Of a DNA stretch of 57,361 bases, positions 1 through 56,654 are shown one piece after another (position 1 is the stretch's first letter; each line of letters begins with the position of its first letter). The translations under genes were made by a program, and so were the position numbers. The notes beneath the pieces are model-generated. The model had not been told where the DNA came from. It did no database searches and saw nothing but the letters and a program-made list of their open reading frames with translations. Source of the stretch: Candidatus Azambacteria bacterium (lineage in GTDB: Bacteria > Patescibacteriota > Minisyncoccia > UBA10092); the NCBI GenBank assembly GCA_003455995.1, contig DMPO01000003.1, positions 37,430-94,790 on the forward strand. Direction: 5' to 3'.

Positions 1-108
1 AATTTTTGGCCTCCCGAAAAGAGAGTGCCATATAACCGCTTCGCTATTATTCTCAACAGTTTGCAAAAACTGCGATTTAATCAATGGGGTCTCCCGACTA
101 ATCTTCAT
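1..108 (-). CDS. 5' end (36 codons, MKISRETPLIKSQFLQTVENNSEAVIWHSLFGRPKI...) of a gene running off the left edge; possibly a third SPASM-type maturase
   Basis: ATG at 108 is preceded by GGAGG and by the same leader motif as the two peptide genes. The N-terminus resembles that of the 4115..5506 radical SAM protein (VIWHSLFGR vs ALFHSISLG). Confidence 0.35.
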   Translation of the reverse strand, partial: MKISRETPLIKSQFLQTVENNSEAVIWHSLFGRPKI

Positions 109-229
109 CTTTTCCGCCCTCCTTTCCTAGCAATTGTTTGTTAAATTGTTAAAAATCTTTACAAAAACACCCTTGTTTTCCGCTTTTCAACTATGTCCGC
201 AACATACACTGCCCCGCAAAGTTTGTCAA
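109..229 (-). promoter_or_regulatory. Promoter (TTGACA-17-TATGTT, 201..229) plus about 90 nt leader carrying the TTAACAATTTAACAA motif (138..152) and a GGAGG SD
   Basis: Hexamers read directly. The leader is homologous to those at 3206..3325 and 5706..5831. Confidence 0.6.
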
Positions 230-251
230 TGGCGAAAATAAAGGGTATAAT
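223..251 (+). promoter_or_regulatory. Promoter TTGTCA-17-TATAAT. Its -35 overlaps the divergent minus-strand -35, and the ATG lies 7 nt after the -10 (leaderless)
   Basis: TTGTCA 223..228, 17 nt spacer, TATAAT 246..251, ATG at 258, no SD. Confidence 0.6.
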
Positions 252-257
252 ATTCAC

Positions 258-1187
258 ATGAAAATGAAAACCACCAAAAATAATATAAAATTAAACATTA
301 CCGTAAGCCGTTGGGCGAATTTTTATTTTTTTGTTCAAAATCTATCCGAATGGAATAATAGAAATAGAAAAGATTATAACACCCTATGGCAAGCGGAGCT
401 CGATCCGTTTTCCGAACGAGAAAAGAATGCCTTGAAAGCATTCAAAAAAGTTAGGTTGCGCTATAAATCGAATCGAGGCGAATTCGAGCGCGCCTTTTTT
501 ACATCGAAAGAACCATTAAAACAATTACAACTTACTCTTCCGACAGACGAATTTATTGTTATCAAAAAAGTTTTCGCTTTGTTCAAAAAAAAGTTTGATA
601 TTTTATATAAAAAGGATTTTCCGCTTTTGAAAAAATGGCAAGAAATTTTATATAGAAAAATAAACAAAAAATCACTGATAAAATCAATAATCTCTCCGAT
701 AGAAATTCTCTATAATGCCACCGCTCCAAAAAAAACCGTAGATATTTATTTATTGCTTTCCGCGCCCAATCATACTGGCGGCGGCGCGAATGTAAACGAT
801 CAGAGCGCCAGCATTGAAATTTCCCGCTATCCTACGCAAGGCATAAATCATGTGTTGGGAATCATTTGGCATGAAGTGATACATTTATGTTTTGAAAAAC
901 AATATTTTGTCCCTTTGCTTGTCGAGTATTTTGGTCGCGCAAGCAAATCTATTGGCTTGATAAGCGAAATCGCCGCGAGTTCTCTTTTGCCCAACGGCAT
1001 ACTCGGGCAAAGTATTTTATATTCTTTGCCTCCAAAGTTTCTTAACATAAGAATCCCAACCAAATTTAATAAAAAGCTGATGAATATAATGGGTGGCTAT
1101 ATGAAAAGTAAAAAACCTTTGGATAAAAAGTATATTCAAAATATCTGGACTATTGCCAAAGTTTTACAGAATAATTGGCAAAAATAA
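258..1187 (+). CDS. HExxH-motif protein (putative zinc metallopeptidase-like), function unknown
   Basis: 309 aa ORF with IIWHEVIHLCFEKQYF. It looks like a paralog of 3329..4060 (AIIAHELLHFMFYDYF). N-terminal SRWANFYFF is shared with the radical SAM protein at 4115..5506. Confidence 0.6.
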   Translation: MKMKTTKNNIKLNITVSRWANFYFFVQNLSEWNNRNRKDYNTLWQAELDPFSEREKNALKAFKKVRLRYKSNRGEFERAFFTSKEPLKQLQLTLPTDEFIVIKKVFALFKKKFDILYKKDFPLLKKWQEILYRKINKKSLIKSIISPIEILYNATAPKKTVDIYLLLSAPNHTGGGANVNDQSASIEISRYPTQGINHVLGIIWHEVIHLCFEKQYFVPLLVEYFGRASKSIGLISEIAASSLLPNGILGQSILYSLPPKFLNIRIPTKFNKKLMNIMGGYMKSKKPLDKKYIQNIWTIAKVLQNNWQK

Positions 1188-1193
1188 AAACAG

Positions 1194-1847
1194 ATGAGAA
1201 AAGAAGCTTACAAACAAAAACAATGCTATTGGGGGGGATTAAAACCAAATTCTACTCTCAAAAAATATCTGGTTAAATTCCCTAAGGGAAAAACTCTTGA
1301 TATCGGCGCCGGTAGTGGCAGAAATAGTGTTTTTTTGGCTAAAAATGGTTTTGAGGTAGAAGCGGTAGATAAAATCGAAGAAGAACTGGAAAAAATTAAA
1401 ATTACAGCAAAAAAATACCAATTGAAAATCAAAACAAAAGCGTGCAATGTAAATGATTTTAAGTTTGGAAAAAACAAGCATTCTTTAATTGTGGCAATTC
1501 ATTCCTTGGACTTTCTCAAAAAGAGCGAATTTGGCTTGATAATAAATAAAATTAAAAAATCAATTATAGCGAATGGATTCATATATCTTTCCGTTTTTTC
1601 AACTAAAGATCCAATGTATAAACTGATAACGGAAAAAGGAATCGGACAAATTGAAGAAAATACTTTTTATTTACCCAAATCTCAAACTTATAGGCATTTT
1701 TTTACCAAAAAAGAACTGCGAGAAAAATTCGAAAATTTCAAAATCATTATATTAAAGCAAAAACAGATATTGGATAAAGGACACGGCGAACCGCATCATC
1801 ATGATATAATTGAACTACTGGCTCAAAAAGAAAAAACGGCGAAATAA
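1194..1847 (+). CDS. Class I SAM-dependent methyltransferase (TehB-like)
   Basis: Motif I LDIGAGSGRNSVFLAKNG, followed by an acidic residue after the beta2 strand (VEAVD). 217 aa. Confidence 0.8.
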   Translation: MRKEAYKQKQCYWGGLKPNSTLKKYLVKFPKGKTLDIGAGSGRNSVFLAKNGFEVEAVDKIEEELEKIKITAKKYQLKIKTKACNVNDFKFGKNKHSLIVAIHSLDFLKKSEFGLIINKIKKSIIANGFIYLSVFSTKDPMYKLITEKGIGQIEENTFYLPKSQTYRHFFTKKELREKFENFKIIILKQKQILDKGHGEPHHHDIIELLAQKEKTAK

Positions 1848-1858
1848 TCCGCCGCTTT

Positions 1859-2953
1859 TTAAGCCAAATGCCAACATTGCGGATCGGGACTAAAAAAATC
1901 ACCCGAAACTCCATGAGATACCGCTCCGCAACCGCGACATCTGTATAATAAAGGACAATTTTTACACTTCTTGTAGCGAGTCAAATTTCTAAGGCGATTC
2001 AACTCTTTGGACATAATGAATAAATCAAATAAACTTTGCTCGGGGACCTTTCCTATCGGACTCTCAAAACGACGACAGGCATAAACCGTGCCATCGGATA
2101 ACACCGAAAGGCTGGCAACCCCTAAACTGCAACCGCTGATTACAATTTCTTGTTTTCTTATTCGTTCTATTTGCCGTTTTTCCTTTATAGAACATTTTTC
2201 GTAAAAGTATAATTCCCATAAATGGTCTTTAAATACGAATTTTGTTCTCGGATAAGTTATGGATAAAATTTTGCGAGCATTGTCAACTTCTTCCAGTAGC
2301 GACCTATATTCTTCGGGAGTGAACATTTGTTCTTTATATTCCTCCATCGACCAACCGCTGGGCTTACAAAATCTCGCAAAAGCAAAGGCACCAAAATTGT
2401 TTTCCATTATTTTTTTCATCACCTCGATTAAATCGGGAGCGTTAAATTTGGACAGAGTAAACATGCAGGTCGGTCTAATACCCGCTTCTTTTAGAATTCT
2501 TGCGGCCCTAAATACATCATGATAGCTGTCATTTTTTCTCAAAAAATCATGTTTTTCTTCTAGGCCATCTAAACTTAACTGATATTTGCGCACGCCTTTC
2601 GTTTTTAATCTTCCAGCCGTTAACTCATCAATAAAAAATGAGTTGCCTAAAATATCAATGGCAGTTTTTGATTTATGTTTTTTTGCCAATTCATTTATTA
2701 CATCCAACACTCGCCAAAAATCAGGATGGAGCATAGGATCGCCACCGGTCAAAACAAAAATAGGGTTGGCATTAAGCTGCAAAACAGTTTTATACATGTC
2801 ATCAACTATCAATGATAAAACATCGATGCATAATTCTTTCTGTTGATTCTCTTGAATGTATTCCGACTGATACAAATAACAATGCTTGCATCGTTGAGAA
2901 CATCGATCCGTAATATGCCATTGGAGATAAAAATTCGGTTTACGAGTTTTCAT
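1859..2953 (-). CDS. Radical SAM / SPASM-domain peptide-modifying enzyme
   Basis: CSQRCKHCY (CxxxCxxC). C-terminal SPASM pattern CSLGVASLSVLSDGTVYAC ... CKNCPLLYRCRGC ... DPQC. AAGGAG SD. Lies immediately downstream of the peptide gene. Confidence 0.85.
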   Translation of the reverse strand: MKTRKPNFYLQWHITDRCSQRCKHCYLYQSEYIQENQQKELCIDVLSLIVDDMYKTVLQLNANPIFVLTGGDPMLHPDFWRVLDVINELAKKHKSKTAIDILGNSFFIDELTAGRLKTKGVRKYQLSLDGLEEKHDFLRKNDSYHDVFRAARILKEAGIRPTCMFTLSKFNAPDLIEVMKKIMENNFGAFAFARFCKPSGWSMEEYKEQMFTPEEYRSLLEEVDNARKILSITYPRTKFVFKDHLWELYFYEKCSIKEKRQIERIRKQEIVISGCSLGVASLSVLSDGTVYACRRFESPIGKVPEQSLFDLFIMSKELNRLRNLTRYKKCKNCPLLYRCRGCGAVSHGVSGDFFSPDPQCWHLA

Positions 2954-2964
2954 TTCTGACTCCT

Positions 2965-3002
2965 TAATAAATAAGGCCGGATTCTTTTTTCGAATTAGGC
3001 CT
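2965..3002 (-). terminator. Imperfect hairpin between peptide gene and maturase (possible attenuator)
   Basis: aggccggattc / gaattaggcct arms (9 of 11 pair), followed on the minus strand by TTATTTATT. Confidence 0.3.
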
Positions 3003-3019
3003 CGGTTGCTGGGCGATAA

Positions 3020-3205
3020 CTAATCGAAATCGCAAGTCGGATCCGCCTGGCAAGGGTCACTATAGCAAGCCACCTGACATGCAGAACATGTAGAACGTGT
3101 TACTCTCATCCGTCTCTTGGGTAAAAAGGATATCTTTAGGGACCGTCTCCAGTAATTATACTTGCCCAAAACCTTCTTAATTTTCAAACTCCTTATCTTT
3201 TTCAT
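3020..3205 (-). CDS. Candidate RiPP precursor peptide, 61 aa, basic leader and Cys-rich C-terminus
   Basis: MKKIRSLKIKKVLGKYNYWRRSLKISFLPKRRMRVTRSTCSACQVACYSDPCQADPTCDFD. GGAGG lies 7 nt before the ATG. Five Cys fall in the last 22 residues. Directly upstream of the rSAM/SPASM gene. Confidence 0.7.
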   Translation of the reverse strand: MKKIRSLKIKKVLGKYNYWRRSLKISFLPKRRMRVTRSTCSACQVACYSDPCQADPTCDFD

Positions 3206-3325
3206 CTCTCGCCCTCCTTTCAGGCAAATTTACTTGTTAAATTGTTAAAAATCTGGCAAAAACCACCCTTTTATTTCCTTATTCAAATCTTCCCGCATTA
3301 TACAAACCCCCGCCCCGCTTGTCAA
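3206..3325 (-). promoter_or_regulatory. Perfect consensus promoter TTGACA-17-TATAAT (3297..3325) plus about 85 nt conserved leader with TTAACAATTTAACAA (3234..3248)
   Basis: Read directly. About 58 nt (3269..3326) are identical to 5775..5832. Confidence 0.75.
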
Positions 3326-3328
3326 GGT

Positions 3329-4060
3329 TTATTTTTTACGCCGTAATAATATTTTAATAAAAGGTTCTATGTCGCTTATGAGATTTTTGATTTTTAGCGA
3401 CATGGGATATTTATATTTTTTTTTGAGTTGAGAAATGATTTTTTTATGCTCCGGATAGGACATGGTTTCTTTTTCAAAAACATCCAGCCAAGTAGGAGAA
3501 TTTTGAACCAAGGAGTTGAAAATTTCCGATATGTGCCATACATAAATGCTATTTTCGGAATGCTTATAACGGGGATAATTTTCGCAAAAATAATCATAAA
3601 ACATAAAATGAAGCAGCTCATGCGCAATGATCGCATTTACATATTTCTTGTTTTTATATTTTATAGGAATCTGAAATGTTTTATCTTCGAGAAATCTTGG
3701 AAACATGCCCCAAATAGTCGCATAAGCAATATACTTCCCCTTTGGCCATGGCCTGTTATGAAAAAGATCTTTGACCAAATTAAAAAACCTGCCTTCCTTT
3801 TTCTTCCAATTAGTTTCGTAAACCTTAAAGTTTGCGGCAGCGACTGCGATATTTTTTTTATATAATCCCTCAATGTATTTTTTGATAAAAAGATAATCGA
3901 TATCGCTCTTTTTTTTGACTATTTTTCTCAATTGCGGATGCTTTTTAAAAATTGCCCATTCCAGATTTCTGCCATCATCAAACCCGGCTTCTTTTATAAA
4001 AGCTTTGAAAGTCGGCAGGTCTTTTTGAGCGTCAATCTTGAATTTTACTTTTGGATTCAT
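3329..4060 (-). CDS. HExxH-motif protein, paralog of 258..1187
   Basis: 243 aa with AIIAHELLHFMFYDYF. The order of conserved segments matches the 309 aa protein. Confidence 0.6.
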   Translation of the reverse strand: MNPKVKFKIDAQKDLPTFKAFIKEAGFDDGRNLEWAIFKKHPQLRKIVKKKSDIDYLFIKKYIEGLYKKNIAVAAANFKVYETNWKKKEGRFFNLVKDLFHNRPWPKGKYIAYATIWGMFPRFLEDKTFQIPIKYKNKKYVNAIIAHELLHFMFYDYFCENYPRYKHSENSIYVWHISEIFNSLVQNSPTWLDVFEKETMSYPEHKKIISQLKKKYKYPMSLKIKNLISDIEPFIKILLRRKK

Positions 4061-4089
4061 AAAAAAGAGGGCGAGTATGCCTCGCCCTC
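4061..4089 (-). terminator. Intrinsic terminator-like hairpin after the second rSAM gene
   Basis: gagggcgag-tatgc-ctcgccctc (9 bp perfect stem), followed on the minus strand by TTTTTT. The next ATG (4060) abuts the T run. Confidence 0.6.
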
Positions 4090-4114
4090 AAGATACCACC
4101 ATAAAACCATTTTC

Positions 4115-5506
4115 TCAAGTAATAAGCTGAGCATATGTCTCCCAAATTAGCCACTCAATGGTCATTTTGCCATGAGCGCAAGCGCGCTCGTCTAGATTCC
4201 AACGACTTCCAGTTTTTAGTTCCGCGCTCGCCGGACAACCGCCGCCACAGATGCCCATCGCCGGGCAATCCAAGCAATCTTTCATAAAAAACGGCGATCG
4301 CCTCTCCCATTCCTTAAAAAGACCAGCCGCCACCGGATCGCTATCTTTGTCTATAACTGACCCTCGAAAGTAAGTGCGCGGCTTTACGAAATCCTGACAA
4401 ACGCCGATTTGGCCATCGGGAGCAATAACCAGTTGATTGCCAATCACGCCGCAGTCGGCATAAATTGGTTGTCTATTGATAAATGCTCCGGCCTTTCTCA
4501 TCATGCGATCTTCATACATTCCGAGCTCTCGAAATTTCTCAAATGCGGCGATTTGGCATCTAACAGCGTCGGAATAATAATTCGGAGGCAAGAAAATATT
4601 CGGGTTAAAATGCAGGATGTTAAGACTAATACCATCAACCCAGCCAACCTCGTCGGTCAGAAAAGCCAGAAGCTTATCAAAGTGCTGTACGGCTTCGGAG
4701 GTCAATGTTACCGAAAGGCCAACCTTGGCTTTATATTTTTTAAGAAGACCCAACGCTCTCATGATAGCGGCAAAAACATCCAGCTCCCCATCCTTAGTCT
4801 TGCGATAGAGATTGTTCATTTCGTGCGGACCATCAATAGACACCCCCACTGTCACTCCTTTCTCGGAAAAAAACCTGGCCATTTCGTCATCAAGAAAAGT
4901 GCCATTTGTCACAATTGCGGTCTCGCACACTGATGGAAGAATCCCACGAGTCTTCAATCCACATATGTAATCAACCGCAAATCGCACCACCCCTCCATTC
5001 ATTAACGGCTCCCCGCCATAAAGATGAATCACCTTTTTCTTTTTGGGATCGCCATATCGAGCAACCATTCTCGCAAAAAGATCCAAAGCGTCCCGCGCGA
5101 TTTCAACGCTCATATGGACCGGATTAAATGGTTCAATCAGAACAGGGGAATCCTCAAAACAATAGCCGCATCTGAGATTGCAGTGGTCGGTTACGAGAAG
5201 ATACATTAGTTCAAGCGTGATTTCTTTTAAAAGTTTTTGCCGCGCCTCTTCAAGATATCCAAAGTCATCAAAATCATCGGTAACCAAAATGCCCTCATTC
5301 ATAAGAGCTTCCACAATATCGGCTCCGACAGATTCTTCAATTTCGCTTATTTCTTTGGACATCCCAATAAGCGGTTTGAGAGAACGAAATGTCTCTTCAG
5401 GAAGAAATACCAGCCCCAAAGAGATAGAATGAAATAATGCCGCTATCCCTGGCCGATTAAAAAAATTGGCCCAACGAGACATTCTAACTATGGTCCGGTT
5501 ATTCAT
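4115..5506 (-). CDS. Radical SAM / SPASM-domain peptide-modifying enzyme with an N-terminal extension
   Basis: CNLRCGYCFE. SPASM pattern CGVIGNQLVIAPDGQIGVC ... CLDCPAMGICGGGC ... ERAC. The track start at 5518 is a GTG lying inside the SD; ATG at 5506 follows GGGAGGA. Confidence 0.85.
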   Translation of the reverse strand: MNNRTIVRMSRWANFFNRPGIAALFHSISLGLVFLPEETFRSLKPLIGMSKEISEIEESVGADIVEALMNEGILVTDDFDDFGYLEEARQKLLKEITLELMYLLVTDHCNLRCGYCFEDSPVLIEPFNPVHMSVEIARDALDLFARMVARYGDPKKKKVIHLYGGEPLMNGGVVRFAVDYICGLKTRGILPSVCETAIVTNGTFLDDEMARFFSEKGVTVGVSIDGPHEMNNLYRKTKDGELDVFAAIMRALGLLKKYKAKVGLSVTLTSEAVQHFDKLLAFLTDEVGWVDGISLNILHFNPNIFLPPNYYSDAVRCQIAAFEKFRELGMYEDRMMRKAGAFINRQPIYADCGVIGNQLVIAPDGQIGVCQDFVKPRTYFRGSVIDKDSDPVAAGLFKEWERRSPFFMKDCLDCPAMGICGGGCPASAELKTGSRWNLDERACAHGKMTIEWLIWETYAQLIT

Positions 5507-5526
5507 AAATCCTCCCACATGATAAG

Positions 5527-5557
5527 TAAAAGCGGGAACGAGTTTTTTCGTCCCCGC
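5527..5557 (-). terminator. Intrinsic terminator/attenuator between the 43 aa peptide gene and the maturase
   Basis: On the minus-strand RNA: GCGGGGACG-AAAAAACU-CGUUCCCGC-UUUUAC. This is a 9 bp stem including one G.U pair. A second hairpin ccgcgg-ttagaa-ccgcgg lies at 5554..5571. Confidence 0.55.
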
Positions 5558-5573
5558 GGTTCTAACCGCGGCT

Positions 5574-5705
5574 TTAGCGGCGGTTGCAGACAGTATAGCA
5601 GCAACTCTCCATGGCCCAATTCACAAAATCCGGATTTGGGCCAAGGATCTTGCCAACTACTTTTACCCTGTCTGCCGGTTTAACCACAATCAGCCGTACT
5701 TTCAT
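5574..5705 (-). CDS. Candidate RiPP precursor peptide, 43 aa (not in the ORF track)
   Basis: Hand translation: MKVRLIVVKPADRVKVVGKILGPNPDFVNWAMESCCYTVCNRR, stop TAA. GGAGG lies 8 nt before the ATG. It has the same promoter and leader as the 61 aa peptide gene and sits immediately upstream of the rSAM/SPASM gene. Confidence 0.65.
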   Translation of the reverse strand: MKVRLIVVKPADRVKVVGKILGPNPDFVNWAMESCCYTVCNRR

Positions 5706-5831
5706 CTCTCTGCCCTCCTTTCGAGCAAATTGGTTAAATTGTTAAAAAACTTTCCTTTTATCCAAAAACCGCCTTTTTATTTCCTTATTCAAATCTTCCC
5801 GCATTATACAAACCCCCGCCCCGCTTGTCAA
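5706..5831 (-). promoter_or_regulatory. Perfect consensus promoter TTGACA-17-TATAAT (5803..5831) plus conserved leader with TTAACAATTTAACCA (5731..5745)
   Basis: Read directly; duplicate of the 3206..3325 module. Confidence 0.75.
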
Positions 5832-5843
5832 GCGCGAAATTTT

Positions 5844-6173
5844 TCAAGAATGAAGGCGGGCGGCGAGGGCGAAATTGAAAAAATAGCGGTTCAAGTCCTC
5901 GAGCGTTGTTTTATATTCTTTGCCGCCGAACATCGCATCAGCTAGCAATTCGCGGGCGCGAATGATTTCCTTGAGCCGAAAACGCCATCTGGGGTCGGCT
6001 ATTGTTAAGTCCAAAAGCTCGAACGCCCTGTCAATGGCATTGTCGTATGATTCTCGGTTTTTATCGCGCCAATTGAGCGCGCGGCTTATTTCGCCACCGA
6101 CATTGCCCAATTGTTCCATTAAAGAAAGTTTTTGCCATCCGCCGCCGGCTAATTCTTTATGTTGAATAACCAT
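5844..6173 (-). CDS. Hypothetical protein (weak MazG-like helical resemblance)
   Basis: 109 aa ORF, last gene of a four-gene minus-strand operon. The segment LMEQLGNVGGEISRAL is only suggestive. Confidence 0.35.
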   Translation of the reverse strand: MVIQHKELAGGGWQKLSLMEQLGNVGGEISRALNWRDKNRESYDNAIDRAFELLDLTIADPRWRFRLKEIIRARELLADAMFGGKEYKTTLEDLNRYFFNFALAARLHS

Positions 6174-6176
6174 AAA

Positions 6177-6521
6177 TTACAAAATCAGCTTGTTGATTAT
6201 ATCCCTGATTTTTATTTGGATTTCCAAATTTTCAACGCTTCTGGATCTGTTGTTTTGCGACGGCCGCACATTTATCATGGAATCAAACTCGACGAATCCA
6301 TTATCAGATTTGTTTATATGCAAATTTACGCCCCACAAATTTTCCTGCTTCGAACCCTCTTCCAAAAGCAATTTTTCTTCATCGGCATGTAAATCGCCGC
6401 CGATAGCCATAATTTCTTTTTCAATATCGATTACGGCCTTTACCAATTCGCCGAATTGATTTTCGGCGATTTTTCGCAATTCATTTTTTGAAATCGAATC
6501 GTTTACAATTTTTATCGCCAT
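6177..6521 (-). CDS. Conserved hypothetical protein (recalled as DUF5674-like)
   Basis: 114 aa. VKAVIDIEKEIMAIGGDLHADEEKLLLEEGSKQENLWGVNL matches a family I recall from archaeal and CPR genomes; this was not verified. Confidence 0.4.
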   Translation of the reverse strand: MAIKIVNDSISKNELRKIAENQFGELVKAVIDIEKEIMAIGGDLHADEEKLLLEEGSKQENLWGVNLHINKSDNGFVEFDSMINVRPSQNNRSRSVENLEIQIKIRDIINKLIL

Positions 6522-6527
6522 AAATAC

Positions 6528-6830
6528 TTAATGGGGATTGATATTAAAAATCGCTTTTTCCCGGACATCTTTTTTGAGTCGGATATTAAATATCGTGGTC
6601 CAAAAATTTAGAACCTTTTCAAACCAAACGCCGCGTCCGGGATTTTTGACAATTTCTTTTATTTCCTCATCAGAATATATTTCTTTAAGCCATTTAATAT
6701 CATCCCATGTGCCATAGTTTAAAACTTGAGAAATAACATAATCTTTGTCGCGATCAAAATTTATAGTTTTTATATCGTACGACCAGAATAGCCACCGCAT
6801 TTTTTGAGGAATTTTTTTATTTTTAGTCAT
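6528..6830 (-). CDS. Small conserved hypothetical protein partnered with the AbiEii-like gene
   Basis: 100 aa. Overlaps the upstream NTase gene by 8 nt. Motif pattern LFWSYD...VISQVLNYGTWDDIKWL. Confidence 0.4.
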   Translation of the reverse strand: MTKNKKIPQKMRWLFWSYDIKTINFDRDKDYVISQVLNYGTWDDIKWLKEIYSDEEIKEIVKNPGRGVWFEKVLNFWTTIFNIRLKKDVREKAIFNINPH

Positions 6831-7446
6831 TTTTTTGATATTTTTTTACTTCCTCTATTAAAAATTCTTTTATTTTTGGCCAAGAAGCGGTGCCAAATAG
6901 ATATAATTTTCTTTGCTGTTTTTTGTCGGCATCGGCAAAATAAGTCAAACCGCGAAGACCGACATAAATATTAAATTCTGGATATTTTTGTTTTACAAAT
7001 GAAAAGATATTTTCAAGAGAAAACTCCTTCATCAAGAAATAAACATCCACAAAGTCTCTTCTGGTTCCTCTATCGGAAACTGCAATTATTTTCATGGCCG
7101 CTATATCTTGCTTTGAAGCAATGCGAAGACCGTTAATTTCTGCAGGAGGAAACACCATTGGGTATGAATAGTAAAAAAAACTTGCGGCAACTTCGTTTAA
7201 TTTCACTATAAGAGTATCTTCCGCTTTCTGTAAAAGAATAACTTTTTCAAATCGCTTTCTTAATTCCTGATATAATTTCGCGCTATCAAACTTCTTATTT
7301 ATATAAAAATCGAAATCAAGGGAAGTTCGATGGCCGATCTGCAAAGCCAAAGCGGTGCCGCCGGCCATATAAAAACCCTGTTTATTTAAAAAACCGAGTT
7401 TTGATAAAAGTTTTTTTCTTTTTGGGTCTAAAATTTCTAAACGCAT
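6823..7446 (-). CDS. Nucleotidyltransferase, AbiEii/AbiGii toxin-like
   Basis: GGTALALQIGHRTSLDFDFY is typical of the AbiEii (DUF1814) NTase family. 207 aa, which is short for the family. Confidence 0.55.
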   Translation of the reverse strand: MRLEILDPKRKKLLSKLGFLNKQGFYMAGGTALALQIGHRTSLDFDFYINKKFDSAKLYQELRKRFEKVILLQKAEDTLIVKLNEVAASFFYYSYPMVFPPAEINGLRIASKQDIAAMKIIAVSDRGTRRDFVDVYFLMKEFSLENIFSFVKQKYPEFNIYVGLRGLTYFADADKKQQRKLYLFGTASWPKIKEFLIEEVKKYQKND

Positions 7447-7506
7447 ATATATTTTGTATTATAGCATAATTTACATAAATTTACCATAGTTTTTTGGCGT
7501 CAACTT

Positions 7507-7515
7507 TGGTAGAAT
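7507..7515 (+). promoter_or_regulatory. Extended -10 (TGgTAGAAT) 7 nt upstream of the lnt ATG (leaderless)
   Basis: TG 7507..7508, TAGAAT 7510..7515, ATG 7522, no SD. Confidence 0.45.
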
Positions 7516-7521
7516 GAATCC

Positions 7522-8922
7522 ATGTTTCTGCCGATTTTATCCGCTATTTTGGGAATCATCGCTTTTCTGCCGATTAATTTTTACCCGGCGGGACTTGTTT
7601 TTTTGGCTCCGCTTTTTATTTTTTTCCTGCGCGAACAAAAACTCCGGCGATTGATTTTAGGGACAGCTCTTTTTCGACTGACCTTTGGCTTGGGAACCGT
7701 TTACTACACTTTAGAGCCGATTTTCTGGCTGACATCGCTTCTCATATTTTTTGGTCTGCCGATATCGATTTGGTTAATTAAAAAATTTTCCGCGCGATTT
7801 CATTCATTATTTGTTATCCGCTATTTATTATTCATTGCCTTGCCTTTTTTATGGACTGTTTTCGACCTTCTCCAAGCCCGATATTCTTTACTGCCGACCT
7901 ATATCATCACTGCCGGCAATAGCTTGGGGTCTTCGCCATTTGTGGGACTGGCTGGCATAGGCGGTTTGGTTCTTCTCACATTTTTTGCCGCCTCAATCAA
8001 TACATTGATCGCAGCAACAATCGCCGCGCCTCCCCTGACAAGGGAAGAAAAAAAGAGGGGTTTTATTCTAATCGGCGTTATTGCCATTCTTATTTTTTCC
8101 GCCTACTTTATTTCCCAATACCGGCTCCAAAAAAATGCGTCTGAATATGATAATCTCCCCAATTCGCTAAAAATAGCGGCGATTTCAACCAATGAAAAAT
8201 TCGAGCGCGGGCAATTTGAAAAACTCAAAGCCGAATTGTCCGGCAAACAATTAGATTTGATAGTTTTTCCGGAAGATATTTTTTCCTCCCGAGCGGATTT
8301 ATTTGATAGCCAGCGGGAATTTTTTCAAAATTTGGCGAAAGAATTAAACGCGGACATCATAACTGTTTTTGACACCATTTCGGAGGGGAAAAAATATAAT
8401 TCCGCTATTTTGTTCGGCAAAAATGGAGAAATCGCCGGCGTTCACAATAAAAACCGCCTAACTTTTATCGGCGAATACTGGCCGTTCGGCGATTGGCGGC
8501 TATCATTCTACGATTGGCTGGCGAAAAAAAATCCAAAAATTAAGAATTACGCTGTTTTTGACATTAAAAACGCTTACGCGCGCGGCGATACCAATATGTT
8601 AAAAATAAAAGAGGCGAATTTTGCCGCGGCTATTTGTTTGGAAATCCAATATCTGTTCGACATCAAAAAATACCGAGAAAACAGCGCGCGATTCGTCGTT
8701 AACCCGACAAGTAATCGCTGGATTGGGAAGGGCGCGAAACATTTTCTTTACATCTCCGACAATTTGAAAAAAATAGAAGCCGTTTGGCTGAAATTGCCGA
8801 TTGTTTCCGGCGGGGTGAAGGACTTCGCCGGCATTATTTTGCCCGATGGCGAGGCGTATTTCGTCAACTACGAAAACAGCCCCAAAGATTGGGGCATGTT
8901 CTTCGGGGAAATAAAATACTGA
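7522..8922 (+). CDS. lnt: Apolipoprotein N-acyltransferase
   Basis: Polytopic N-terminus plus a CN-hydrolase domain. Triad contexts are IVFPED, HNKNRLTFIGEYWPF and AAAICLEIQY. Confidence 0.75.
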   Translation: MFLPILSAILGIIAFLPINFYPAGLVFLAPLFIFFLREQKLRRLILGTALFRLTFGLGTVYYTLEPIFWLTSLLIFFGLPISIWLIKKFSARFHSLFVIRYLLFIALPFLWTVFDLLQARYSLLPTYIITAGNSLGSSPFVGLAGIGGLVLLTFFAASINTLIAATIAAPPLTREEKKRGFILIGVIAILIFSAYFISQYRLQKNASEYDNLPNSLKIAAISTNEKFERGQFEKLKAELSGKQLDLIVFPEDIFSSRADLFDSQREFFQNLAKELNADIITVFDTISEGKKYNSAILFGKNGEIAGVHNKNRLTFIGEYWPFGDWRLSFYDWLAKKNPKIKNYAVFDIKNAYARGDTNMLKIKEANFAAAICLEIQYLFDIKKYRENSARFVVNPTSNRWIGKGAKHFLYISDNLKKIEAVWLKLPIVSGGVKDFAGIILPDGEAYFVNYENSPKDWGMFFGEIKY

Positions 8923-8923
8923 T

Positions 8924-9163
8924 TTATTGAACTTTCAGCAAGCGATAATTCGGCAAAATGCCGGATTTTATCAGCCACGGTCCCAAGACAAAAGTGGCGA
9001 AGAAAAACCAAACCAACGAAAACGCCACTAAAATCGCGCCTTCTTTGCGGTGTTTCTCATCCATTAACACGGCAATGCCGTAAACCAGACCGCCGACAAC
9101 ACTGAAAAGTGACATTACGATGCCGATCCAAAACCATTTTTTATACAACGCAAATTGATCCAT
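8924..9163 (-). CDS. Small membrane protein
   Basis: 79 aa with two hydrophobic helices. Confidence 0.4.
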   Translation of the reverse strand: MDQFALYKKWFWIGIVMSLFSVVGGLVYGIAVLMDEKHRKEGAILVAFSLVWFFFATFVLGPWLIKSGILPNYRLLKVQ

Positions 9164-9229
9164 ATATAAATTTTAATTAAGAATAATTTGTTTACAATTA
9201 CATTATAGCATTGACGCAACCGGAAGTAT

Positions 9230-9238
9230 TGTGGATAA
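9230..9238 (+). promoter_or_regulatory. Perfect DnaA-box 9-mer (TGTGGATAA = complement of TTATCCACA)
   Basis: Exact match, intergenic (xerC 3' end / promoter region of 8924..9163). Confidence 0.4.
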
Positions 9239-9248
9239 CTTCCCGACG

Positions 9249-10163
9249 CTATTTTCTTCTTTTGCTATGAAACGCCTGATGGACTTCGCGGAGTTGTTTA
9301 TTTGTAATGTGAGTATAAATTTGGGTGGTGATGATGCTGGAGTGTCCCAGGAGTTCCTGCACCGAGCGGATGTCGGCGCCGTTCATAAGTAAATCGGTGG
9401 CGAAACTATGGCGTAAACTATGCGGGGTGATTTTTTTTGAAAGCCCCGCCTTGGCGGAATAATGTTTCACCATGCGCTCAATACTGCGGGAAGTGAGACG
9501 CAGGTTGTTTTCTTTGGCGGGATTTTTTCCGCCTCTAATAAATAGCGCCGGATCGATATCGCCGCGTTTTTCAAGATAATTTTTCATTGCCGTTTTGGCG
9601 GTGTCCGATAAAAAGACCAAACGAACTTTATCGCCCTTGCCCCTTACGGCGAATTCTCCGGACTTGAAATTTATCGAATCGCGATTCAAAGCGCATAATT
9701 CCGAAACGCGAAGGCCGGTGGAAAACAATAATTCCAAAATGGCGCGGTCACGCAGATTATCGGGCGCGTTTAACAGTCGCTCCAGTTCATTATTTTCCAA
9801 AAAAATCACCTGCCGTTCCGACTGTTTACCCAGTTCAATTTTATCCGCCGGCAGAATTTTTACATCGCGTTTTGCCGCGTATTTCAAAAGATTTCTCAAA
9901 GCGATGAGATAATAATTTTGAGTATTTTTTTTCAAACCAGCGGGTTTGCCCCGAGCATTGTCGAGGGGTCGAGCGGGTTGTCTATTCAGCCACAACCGAT
10001 ATTGCCTCACCAAGTCCTGCGAGATTTGCTCCGGCTTGGAGATTTTGGCAAAATCCAAAAATCGCTTTAAATATCGCTCGTAATTAACCCGCGTCTTCAC
10101 CGAGCGGTTTTTTTCAATCTCCAAATAGTCCAAATAGTCCTTCAGAAGAGTTTTTATATCCAT
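9249..10163 (-). CDS. xerC: Tyrosine recombinase XerC/XerD family
   Basis: HSLRHSFATDLLMNGADIRSVQELLGHSSIITTQIYTH. The start was moved to MDIKTLLKDYLDYL (ATG 10163). Confidence 0.85.
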   Translation of the reverse strand: MDIKTLLKDYLDYLEIEKNRSVKTRVNYERYLKRFLDFAKISKPEQISQDLVRQYRLWLNRQPARPLDNARGKPAGLKKNTQNYYLIALRNLLKYAAKRDVKILPADKIELGKQSERQVIFLENNELERLLNAPDNLRDRAILELLFSTGLRVSELCALNRDSINFKSGEFAVRGKGDKVRLVFLSDTAKTAMKNYLEKRGDIDPALFIRGGKNPAKENNLRLTSRSIERMVKHYSAKAGLSKKITPHSLRHSFATDLLMNGADIRSVQELLGHSSIITTQIYTHITNKQLREVHQAFHSKRRK

Positions 10164-10220
10164 GCTTCCATTATACAAGACTTTACGAAAACAAAATATC
10201 ATGCTACTATCTACTCCATA

Positions 10221-56573: not shown

Positions 56574-56654
56574 TGGGCGGGGAGGGAGTCGAACCCTCAT
56601 GCCTTGCGGCACACGATTTTGAGTCGTGCGTGTCTGCCATTCCACCACTCGCCC
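56574..56654 (-). tRNA. tRNA-Leu (anticodon CAA), class II with a long variable arm; CCA not encoded
   Basis: Hand-folded: acceptor GGGCGAG/CCCGCCC (one A-C mismatch), anticodon stem CACGA/TCGTG with loop CTCAAAA, variable arm TGCC-GCAA-GGCA, T arm GAGGG-TTCGACT-CCCTC. Confidence 0.85.

Follow-up and report, generated by a model that had tools for sequence, protein, structure and literature searches.

In the ranthipeptide systems PapA/PapB (freyrasin), SCIFF CteA/CteB and QhpC/QhpD, a radical S-adenosylmethionine (rSAM) maturase with a SPASM domain is encoded beside a short precursor peptide with a Cys-rich C-terminal core. The same arrangement is found in the first 5832 nucleotides of a 57,361-nt stretch of Candidatus Azambacteria DNA (DMPO01000003.1, positions 37,430-94,790 of the forward strand, assembly GCA_003455995.1), the whole of which is referred to here as the window. 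Window 1-5832 encodes two candidate precursors (pep1 and pep2), each followed by its own rSAM/SPASM enzyme (rSAM-1 and rSAM-2), together with two HExxH proteins (HExxH-1 and HExxH-2) and a methyltransferase. It is probably part of a pathway for peptides synthesised ribosomally and modified post-translationally (RiPPs), with adjacent precursors and associated HExxH and methyltransferase proteins, in a member of the Patescibacteria. The products are very likely small, cysteine-rich modified peptides. The likeness to ranthipeptides extends to the enzymes, as rSAM-2 and rSAM-3, an enzyme cut by the left edge of the window, have the PapB, SCIFF and QhpD models among their top matches, and to the substrate, the repeated Cys-x2-Asp of pep1 being compatible with the Cys-Asp thioethers of PapB (PMC9413430). 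The scores, however, lie far below the family cutoffs (128 against 340 bits for PapB), the cores differ from those of ranthipeptides and are far shorter (nine residues in pep2), and where ranthipeptide loci have C39-peptidase ABC exporters the present locus has novel HExxH proteins and a TehB-like methyltransferase.

Individual features are shared with several further systems. The best model for rSAM-1 is TIGR04340, the ACGX system, a hypothetical equivalog with a computational definition only, whose name JGI gives to homologs of 58-64% identity. An enzyme of 43% identity that carries the name 'ACGX system' at NCBI (locus L125) likewise has a TehB-like gene downstream and, upstream, a Cys/Asp-rich candidate open reading frame (ORF), which is looser than pep1, uncalled and uncertain in its start. 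Nevertheless, rSAM-1 falls under the 400-bit cutoff of this family, and the pep1 type has the core CQVAC[HY]SDPCxAxPxCxxD instead of the ACGX repeats that, from the family name, we take to define the peptides of that system; pep1 itself contains SACQ and VACY and no ACG repeat. No paper mentioning the ACGX family was found in the open-access literature. For rSAM-2 the best model is TIGR04136 (FibroRumin), which aligns with nearly the whole protein, again under its cutoff; the host here is a member of the Patescibacteria and not Fibrobacter or Ruminococcus, and the ...CCYTSCTRC precursor and HExxH-2 are in no library. The cyclopropyl synthases TigE/TvgB (8VPO) have the same architecture as rSAM-2, with a RiPP recognition element (RRE), an rSAM core and a SPASM domain, but the similarity is low, at 84 bits, and they act on Val/Ile repeats whereas the core here is Cys-rich. 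Loci for graspetides in the candidate phyla radiation (CPR) bring together peptidases of the zincin superfamily, rSAM enzymes of the SPASM kind and methyltransferases (Makarova et al. 2022, PMC8939145). They differ in being organised around ATP-grasp ligases, none of which is present here. Searches for Patescibacteria together with ranthipeptides or radical SAM, ACGX and FibroRumin found no description of these modules in the searchable literature. The cluster is of an already known kind, an rSAM/SPASM cluster for Cys-rich RiPPs of the ranthipeptide or sactipeptide type, in which the pep1 unit resembles the ACGX system; what is new, as far as the model libraries reach, are the precursor families and the HExxH partners, which are in no library, and enzymes that fail every named-family cutoff.

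The identification of pep1 and pep2 as precursors is favoured by the conservation of such small ORFs beside homologous enzymes, which the initial annotation of this DNA, made from the letters alone, had put forward as a test. We collected 83 loci around HExxH-2 homologs and scanned the 29 in which an rSAM-2 homolog (47-90% identical) lies directly upstream. A pep2-type ORF of 38-86 aa precedes the enzyme by 45-110 nt in 27 of these, in each case with a recognisable leader, ..(V/I)x(K/P)..(D/Q)R(A/S)K(V/L)LG.I.., and with the near-invariant core CC[YFHWN]T[SAQGVD]C[TS]RC at its end. The window copy of pep2 ends in CNRR, while 26 of its 27 relatives end in C[TS]RC (sometimes with one residue more); at window 5574-5582 it has CGC where the relatives read Cys, and a single T-to-C change would explain the lost last Cys. 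ORFs of the pep1 type (57-61 aa) precede rSAM-1 homologs of 63-75% identity at L119, L120 and L121, with a KYNYWR leader and the core CQVAC[HY]SDPC[QS]A[DP]P[ST]CxxD, and at L122, where the rSAM-1 homolog is 47% identical, a called 53-aa Cys/Asp-rich ORF matches pep1 by BLASTP. The last three Cys of pep1 are each accompanied by Asp at +3 (CYSD, CQAD and CDFD). Both types of ORF therefore show the marks of a RiPP cluster, namely a short precursor beside an enzyme, a division into leader and core, and joint conservation. No Pfam or NCBIfam model matches pep1, pep2 or their relatives, the NCBIfam search having been run to E <= 10 with the window and the canonical precursors.

The intergenic region between precursor and enzyme also holds a conserved feature. 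The two stem-loops between pep2 and rSAM-2 have a minimum free energy of -25.5 kcal/mol (z = -3.2), and 19 of 21 pep2-type loci have an equivalent hairpin whose sequence is unrelated (compared with shuffles, mean z = -4.3). The pep1-type loci too carry a strong hairpin between precursor and enzyme, again with differing sequences. RiPP operons are usually laid out so that the precursor transcript stays in excess.

Both enzymes carry the CxxxCxxC motif and the full SPASM cysteine pattern, as had been noted before; the latter comprises seven Cys, in Cx9-15Gx4C, Cx2Cx5Cx2-3C and a final C, with gaps between the three. These can be read directly from residue 18 onward in rSAM-1 (CSQRCKHC at 18, Cx13Gx4C at 275, CKNCPLLYRCRGC...C from 330, last Cys at 360) and from residue 109 onward in rSAM-2 (CNLRCGYC at 109, Cx13Gx4C at 352, CLDCPAMGICGGGC...C from 411, last Cys at 443). 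For rSAM-2 we follow the gene callers in starting at ATG 5506, which has a GGGAGG Shine-Dalgarno (SD) sequence; the ORF can be extended to GTG 5518. Pfam Radical_SAM (PF04055, cutoff 29.5 bits) recognises both enzymes as members, with 64.3 bits for rSAM-1 and 59.9 bits for rSAM-2. The Pfam SPASM model scores rSAM-1 above cutoff (30.9 bits) and misses rSAM-2, whose seven-Cys motif is complete on direct reading. Among NCBIfam models, rSAM-1 matches rSAM_ACGX over its full length with 311.3 bits, followed by SbtM (155), AhbD (110), PapB (74.7, cutoff 340) and the sulfatase maturase (55.9, cutoff 349). Residues 14-462 of rSAM-2 align with positions 2-454 of the FibroRumin maturase (267.7 bits, cutoff 400), ahead of the PapB family NF047865 (128.4, cutoff 340), nif11 (111), QhpD (110) and SCIFF (105); the anaerobic sulfatase maturase TIGR03942 reaches 97.3 bits (cutoff 349). 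The peptide-maturase models score far better, and on these scores rSAM-1 and rSAM-2 group with peptide maturases and not with the sulfatase maturases or cofactor enzymes that had been named as the contrary outcome. Among solved structures, TigE (8VPO, E = 7.8e-23, 84 bits) comes nearest to rSAM-2 and is matched over the full length including the N-terminal RRE of TigE; as TigE makes cyclopropyl groups, homology does not fix the chemistry. Homologs of rSAM-1 at 57-80% identity are common in Patescibacteria metagenomes. More distant ones (38% identity) at L001 1001-2383 and L002 3056-4438 have a C-terminal extension like a nitrile-hydratase-type leader and come after a 744-aa YcaO-like cyclodehydratase, in an SbtM-like arrangement. 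A role in defence, examined with PADLOC, was rejected, the similarity to pVip being of the generic rSAM core only (36-78 bits).

The protein that follows rSAM-2, HExxH-2, is tied to it well beyond this locus. Of 46 HExxH-2 loci with enough upstream sequence, 29 have an rSAM-2 homolog directly ahead on the same strand with a gap of 50-100 nt, and 17 are orphan, without an adjacent rSAM gene. A word-indexed search gave more than 380 homologs of HExxH-2, nearly all unnamed and the named ones mostly from Patescibacteria, and an exhaustive profile search at E <= 1e-3 gave 756 representatives of 50%-identity clusters; the HExxH-1 family has 94 homologs. Both proteins possess the HExxH helix and the downstream Glu as third zinc ligand that are characteristic of zincins and gluzincins, with H147, E148, H151 and E179 invariant among 40 homologs of HExxH-2 and H205, E206, H209 and E237 among 38 of HExxH-1, in an identical HExxH-x27-E spacing. 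Their AlphaFold2 models have a predicted local distance difference test score (pLDDT) of 92.8 (HExxH-2) and 93.3 (HExxH-1). Foldseek of these models against the PDB returned nothing at E < 1 (best E 1.9), with ADAM, PepN, selecase and ArdC among the low-ranking local matches, which for HExxH-2 include zincins, and the HExxH-2 family profile found nothing significant among PDB sequences. Neither Pfam nor NCBIfam matches the HExxH proteins, and no signal peptide was found in them.

The two had been described as paralogs. Two HExxH proteins are indeed present, but the term is too strong because the profile link is only marginal (hhalign probability 27%, E 6.5e-4; BLASTP E = 0.07, in the motif region only), and the relationship is at best remote. 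A third protein, HExxH-3 (AHETAH), encoded outside the window, matches both profiles weakly, and BLASTP between the HExxH proteins is at motif level only. On these comparisons we regard them as three zincin-like families that are remote relatives, each of which is associated with rSAM/peptide modules. For HExxH-1 this includes modules of another sort: its homologs in L122-L124 adjoin, and are convergent with, a different rSAM/SPASM enzyme of 335-377 aa (L122 6938-8111, L123 6960-8289, L124 6947-8230), which is followed by an acidic peptide of 42-58 aa, rich in Trp, Asp and Asn and free of Cys, e.g. ...DWDQWNNWDDLGGDDPGWGDISD. This looks like another RiPP family, possibly of the cyclophane type. 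Genes for type IV pili or type II secretion (pilins, prepilin peptidase, T2SSE/F) flank the pep2/rSAM-2/HExxH-2 triad at L036 1-4222, L038 11186-12720 and L072/L075, and cupredoxin genes lie near L038 and L121; a linkage of the triad to either was rejected as coincidence, being limited to three lineages.

The class I methyltransferase that had been assigned to the block proves to be TehB-like and to adjoin every rSAM-1 homolog or remnant examined, in convergent orientation in the window and at L004, L047, L056, L119 and L121 and co-directionally at L120, L122 and L125. It appears to have the TehB fold without being TehB itself, since it exceeds the Pfam cutoff (PF03848, 63 bits, cutoff 20.4) and misses those of the NCBIfam TehB equivalogs (58-73 bits against 218-303). 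In three other Patescibacteria genomes rSAM-1 has decayed to a C-terminal fragment of 45-289 aa (L004 6992-7861, L047 4098-4235, L056 5895-6065) beside an intact convergent methyltransferase, which suggests either that the module is being lost there or that the methyltransferase has a role of its own.

A further link between the units is their upstream region. The perfect TTGACA-17-TATAAT promoter reported for each peptide/rSAM pair is borne out, as both (5831..5803 and 3325..3297) match at 12/12 positions and consist of the same 29-mer, TTGACAAGCGGGGCGGGGGTTTGTATAAT, with no other copy in the window (0 expected in shuffles). The SD AGGAGG stands 7-8 nt ahead of the ATG of each peptide. Promoter and 5' untranslated region (UTR) together form a cassette of ~125 nt that occurs in five copies in ~12 kb, three of them in the window (cassettes A-C) and copies 4 and 5 outside it on the source contig, at L033 17077-17196 and 19529-19657. 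The fourth copy is exact, and the 29-mer promoter is identical in three of the five; cassette C is 67-74% identical to A and B, with its 16-mer and SD intact. Across the five, conservation is highest in the hexamers of the promoter, in the SD and in a TTTTTAACAATTTAAC box that is invariant. This box is present in all five, ~25-30 nt before the SD, and within the window it is confined to the cassettes. A known riboswitch was rejected for want of an Rfam match: Rfam gave chance-level matches only on window 1-7000 at E <= 1, and the same plus one tRNA-Leu on the whole window at the gathering threshold. Folding of the UTR (z = -1.0) and a four-copy alignment (6 weak pairs) gave no convincing RNA structure, and the 16-mer resembles a protein-binding box more. 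The five cassettes can be read as a co-regulated regulon, with the 16-mer as the putative protein-binding site. Such a five-fold cassette with four different SPASM enzymes is unusual in a reduced genome.

Features of the cluster within the window (positions in the window; + forward strand, - reverse strand)
Feature	Position	Strand	Description
rSAM-3 (N-terminal 36 codons)	1..108	-	467 aa in full, gene on the source contig at L033 13953-15356; N-terminus MKISRETPLIKSQFLQTVENNSEAVIWHSLFGRPKI
Cassette C	109..229	-	TTGACA-17-TATGTT; 16-mer TTTTTAACAATTTAAC at 155-140; SD
HExxH-1	258..1187	+	309 aa, IIWHEVIH; second zincin-like family; separated by 6 nt from the methyltransferase gene that follows
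TehB-like class I SAM methyltransferase	1194..1847	+	217 aa; Pfam TehB 63 bits
Bidirectional terminator-like hairpin	1831..1860		Between the convergent methyltransferase and rSAM-1 genes
rSAM-1	1859..2953	-	364 aa; radical SAM core and SPASM, without N-terminal RRE or extension
pep1	3020..3205	-	61-aa precursor candidate; basic KYNYWR leader, core CSACQVACYSDPCQADPTCDFD, ends ...STCSACQVACYSDPCQADPTCDFD
Cassette B	3206..3325	-	-35 at 3325-3320, -10 at 3302-3297, 16-mer TTTTTAACAATTTAAC at 3251-3236, SD at 3218-3213
HExxH-2	3329..4060	-	243 aa, AHELLH; zincin-like, uncharacterised
Terminator-like hairpin	4067..4089	-	Between rSAM-2 and HExxH-2
rSAM-2	4115..5506	-	463 aa; N-terminal RRE-like region, radical SAM core, seven-Cys SPASM domain
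Two stem-loops	5532..5570	-	Between pep2 and rSAM-2; the second (5557-5532) terminator-like with T-run
pep2	5574..5705	-	43-aa precursor candidate MKVRLIVVKPADRVKVVGKILGPNPDFVNWAMESCCYTVCNRR, ends ESCCYTVCNRR
Cassette A	5706..5831	-	-35 at 5831-5826, -10 at 5808-5803, TTTTTAACAATTTAAC at 5748-5733, SD AGGAGG at 5719-5714

Every feature of the initial gene map was recovered at or near its coordinates. From the ORF listing and direct reading, the order of transcription on the minus strand is promoter, pep2, stem-loops, rSAM-2, hairpin, HExxH-2, promoter, pep1 and rSAM-1, while the plus strand carries HExxH-1 and the methyltransferase, convergent with rSAM-1. The contig MEZB01000001.1 (GCA_001774215.1, 585 kb), one of the public contigs on which the HExxH-2 protein is present, shows no difference from the window in the 6 kb that were compared, so that the genes found beyond the window edge are part of the same locus. 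They reveal that the cluster is truncated by the window edge: positions 1-5832 make up the right-hand half of a RiPP-type biosynthetic supercluster of ~12 kb, about twice what could be seen before. The third unit suspected off the left edge is there, its promoter/UTR copy running directly into the rSAM N-terminus that the edge cuts. The label of a two-precursor cluster does not hold, the cluster extending ~6.5 kb past that edge with a third candidate precursor. The off-window part adds two more rSAM/SPASM enzymes, this third Cys-rich precursor and the third HExxH protein, and also genes for a kinase-like protein and a nucleotidyltransferase. In all, the ~12 kb encode four enzymes of the rSAM/SPASM type, with three candidate precursors and as many HExxH proteins, behind five promoter cassettes.

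Among these, rSAM-3 has a complete SPASM motif (Pfam SPASM 10.7 bits, well below cutoff) and matches PapB best (123 bits, cutoff 340). No precursor lies beside it; at L033 13953-16896 it shares a transcript with a nucleotidyltransferase of the Pol-beta type (238 aa) and a P-loop protein resembling adenylate kinase (197 aa). The fourth enzyme, rSAM-4 (465 aa), is MftC/AhbD-like (181 bits), with a weakly PqqD-like N-terminus and a complete SPASM motif (Pfam 32.0 bits, above cutoff). The third precursor candidate, pep3, is an ORF of 54 aa that is preceded by a strong SD, is Cys-rich at its end (...GGCPSCCTCLCPST) and is followed by a terminator-like hairpin. The fifth cassette precedes a 187-aa protein with a signal peptide. 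Neither an exporter nor an immunity gene lies within the ~12 kb, which extends the earlier remark that the cluster has no exporter; at the related locus L122 an ABC exporter sits between the modules. The assignment of the host to the CPR agrees with the names of the homologs and with the source assembly, both of which point to Patescibacteria.

We propose the following as the likeliest mechanism. The five cassette copies would drive five transcription units: A (pep2, rSAM-2 and HExxH-2), B (pep1 and rSAM-1, with the convergent HExxH-1/methyltransferase operon), C (rSAM-3, the nucleotidyltransferase and the kinase-like protein), D (rSAM-4, pep3 and HExxH-3) and E (the secreted 187-aa protein). 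In unit A, pep2 would be translated from its strong SD, and the hairpin past its stop codon probably holds the precursor transcript above that of the enzyme. The leaders would dock on their enzymes, the hydrophobic and basic one of pep2 (..V.K..DR.KV.G.I) on the RRE-like domain at the N-terminus of rSAM-2. After reductive cleavage of SAM, rSAM-2 would cross-link the short core at the C-terminus, CCYTxCxRx, most probably through a Cys thioether to a neighbouring side-chain carbon. In such a reaction the 5'-deoxyadenosyl radical would take a hydrogen from the acceptor, for which the invariant Thr, the Arg and the aromatic residues are candidates, and the Cys sulfur on auxiliary cluster I would close the thioether ring. 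HExxH-2, as a cytoplasmic zinc-dependent HExxH-x27-E protein, would then remove the leader, the HExxH proteins in general being putative leader peptidases. Unit B would be an ACGX-system-like cassette in which rSAM-1 forms Cys-Asp thioether rings in the core's three conserved C-x2-D motifs, in the manner of PapB or QhpD. Cys-Asp rings are the best guess for pep1 because PapB, which tolerates CX1-5D spacing, joins Cys to the beta-carbon of Asp (PMC9413430). The TehB-like methyltransferase may tailor the product of unit B, by methylation of a thiol or carboxylate, which is the most speculative point. Its relatives methylate soft nucleophiles. We infer, as steps of this scheme, the thioether chemistry, the removal of leaders by HExxH proteins and the methylation of the peptide; the substrate pattern, three Cys-x2-Asp in pep1 and Cys, Thr and Arg in pep2, is compatible with thioethers of the ranthipeptide or sactipeptide kind.

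The core of the initial annotation, a RiPP-type pathway in a CPR genome, came through the two bioinformatic tests described above, and the linkage of the accessory genes is conserved as well. Several observations weigh against the proposed mechanism nonetheless. Neither enzyme reaches the curated cutoff of any named family; TigE, the nearest relative of rSAM-2 with a solved structure, produces cyclopropyl groups and not thioethers; the window copy of pep2, which has lost the near-invariant last Cys, may be functionally altered; the retention of the methyltransferase beside decayed rSAM-1 genes weakens the claim that it acts on the peptide alone; neither HExxH model matches any solved peptidase fold in the PDB; the orphan HExxH-2 loci have no adjacent enzyme; and the ~12 kb include no gene for export or immunity. 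The chemistry is the first point that could be otherwise. It is conceivable, if somewhat unlikely, that the enzymes modify the adjacent peptides by C-C cross-linking, cyclopropanation, epimerisation or thio-oxazole-type reactions, with the Cys as metal ligands or in disulfides, as might be expected from the kinship of rSAM-2 with TigE, from SbtM as second-best model for rSAM-1, from the YcaO cyclodehydratases beside its 38%-identical homologs and from the missed family cutoffs. The invariant core residues are, however, mainly Cys, with Thr, Asp or Arg as acceptors, and the three Cys-x2-Asp of pep1 fit PapB/QhpD chemistry; moreover, GYW, the cyclopropyl-synthase signature (PMC10878394), was not noticed on reading the rSAM-2 translation, in which no motif search was made for it. 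The HExxH proteins, for their part, could be independent housekeeping, immunity or regulatory metalloproteins of the CPR that often happen to lie nearby. We consider this unlikely, even though the neighbours are unrelated for 37% of HExxH-2 homologs, L043 and L113 hold groups of HExxH proteins from different families with no rSAM-2 homolog directly adjacent, and no solved peptidase matches structurally: immediate same-strand adjacency in 63%, with a 50-100 nt gap and across widely diverged genomes, is far above chance, each of the three families has a different rSAM/peptide module as its partner, invariance falls exactly on HExxH and on a Glu 28 residues downstream, and zincin peptidases have been noted independently in CPR RiPP loci (PMC8939145). 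Effectively refuted is the view that the enzymes are anaerobic sulfatase maturases, cofactor enzymes or viperin-like antivirals and the small ORFs spurious. The cross-matches on which it would draw, to the sulfatase maturase (97 and 56 bits), AhbD/NirJ and pVip (36-78 bits), are far under the family cutoffs and under the peptide-maturase scores, and the small ORFs are conserved as proteins in dozens of loci, each with an SD and a following hairpin.

The purpose of the pathway is a separate matter. The same genes could make a conserved intracellular or surface small molecule, such as a redox cofactor, a metal-binding peptide or a signal, in the way of PQQ, mycofactocin or QhpC maturation, and not a secreted antimicrobial. 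The pep2 core CCYTSCTRC is almost invariant across enzymes that are only ~47-67% identical, and a near-invariant core is typical of cofactor precursors, not of arms-race bacteriocins. The HExxH proteins have no signal peptide, rSAM-4 scores best against the MftC and AhbD models, QhpD is among the top matches of rSAM-2 and cupredoxin genes lie near two of the loci. A cofactor, metal-binding or signalling role thus stays in view because of the nine-residue core and the absence of export genes. We nevertheless hold such a role to be rather improbable, as no dehydrogenase or other cofactor-using partner is conserved beside the modules, L122 does have its ABC exporter, the system is absent from many Patescibacteria and 17 of the 46 HExxH-2 loci are orphan. 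A bolder version would have the pep2/rSAM-2/HExxH-2 triad, which is spread over many Patescibacteria lineages, make a conserved thiol- or thioether-rich molecule of core CPR physiology, a cofactor, chelator or host signal and not an antibiotic, with HExxH-x27-E as a new fold family of RiPP leader peptidases and the TTTTTAACAATTTAAC box as the mark of a dedicated regulon with its own regulator; this is a speculation that we judge quite unlikely to hold in full.

CPR bacteria, or Patescibacteria, have minimal genomes and are usually described with little or no secondary metabolism. This reduced genome nonetheless spends ~12 kb on four rSAM/SPASM enzymes behind one repeated cassette, and many related genomes share two of its modules, in which the peptide cores are strongly conserved. 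The cluster is real, conserved and directly testable; it does not amount to a new principle unless its products have a core physiological role. It provides two small precursor/enzyme pairs open to heterologous expression, and two or three protein families for which confident predicted structures, no solved relative and a leader-peptidase hypothesis come together. It may also offer a handle on small molecules made by episymbiotic bacteria and, should the products be cofactors, metal binders or host-interaction signals, would bear on the CPR lifestyle.

The GC content per gene ranges from 0.30 to 0.49 across the cluster, against a window mean of 0.43, which we do not take as proof of horizontal transfer. 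The DNA directly to the right of the cluster (window 5844-10202) carries an unannotated gene of 109 aa, then DUF5674, a pair resembling a toxin-antitoxin system (DUF6922/AbiEii), an apolipoprotein N-acyltransferase and an integrase like XerC. The gene p109, which lies upstream of cassette A, was considered as a member of the cluster and excluded, as it has no homolog in the 83 related loci. Towards the other end of the window, a tRNA-Leu(CAA) at 56574-56654 is the sole Rfam/ARAGORN match in the 57 kb.

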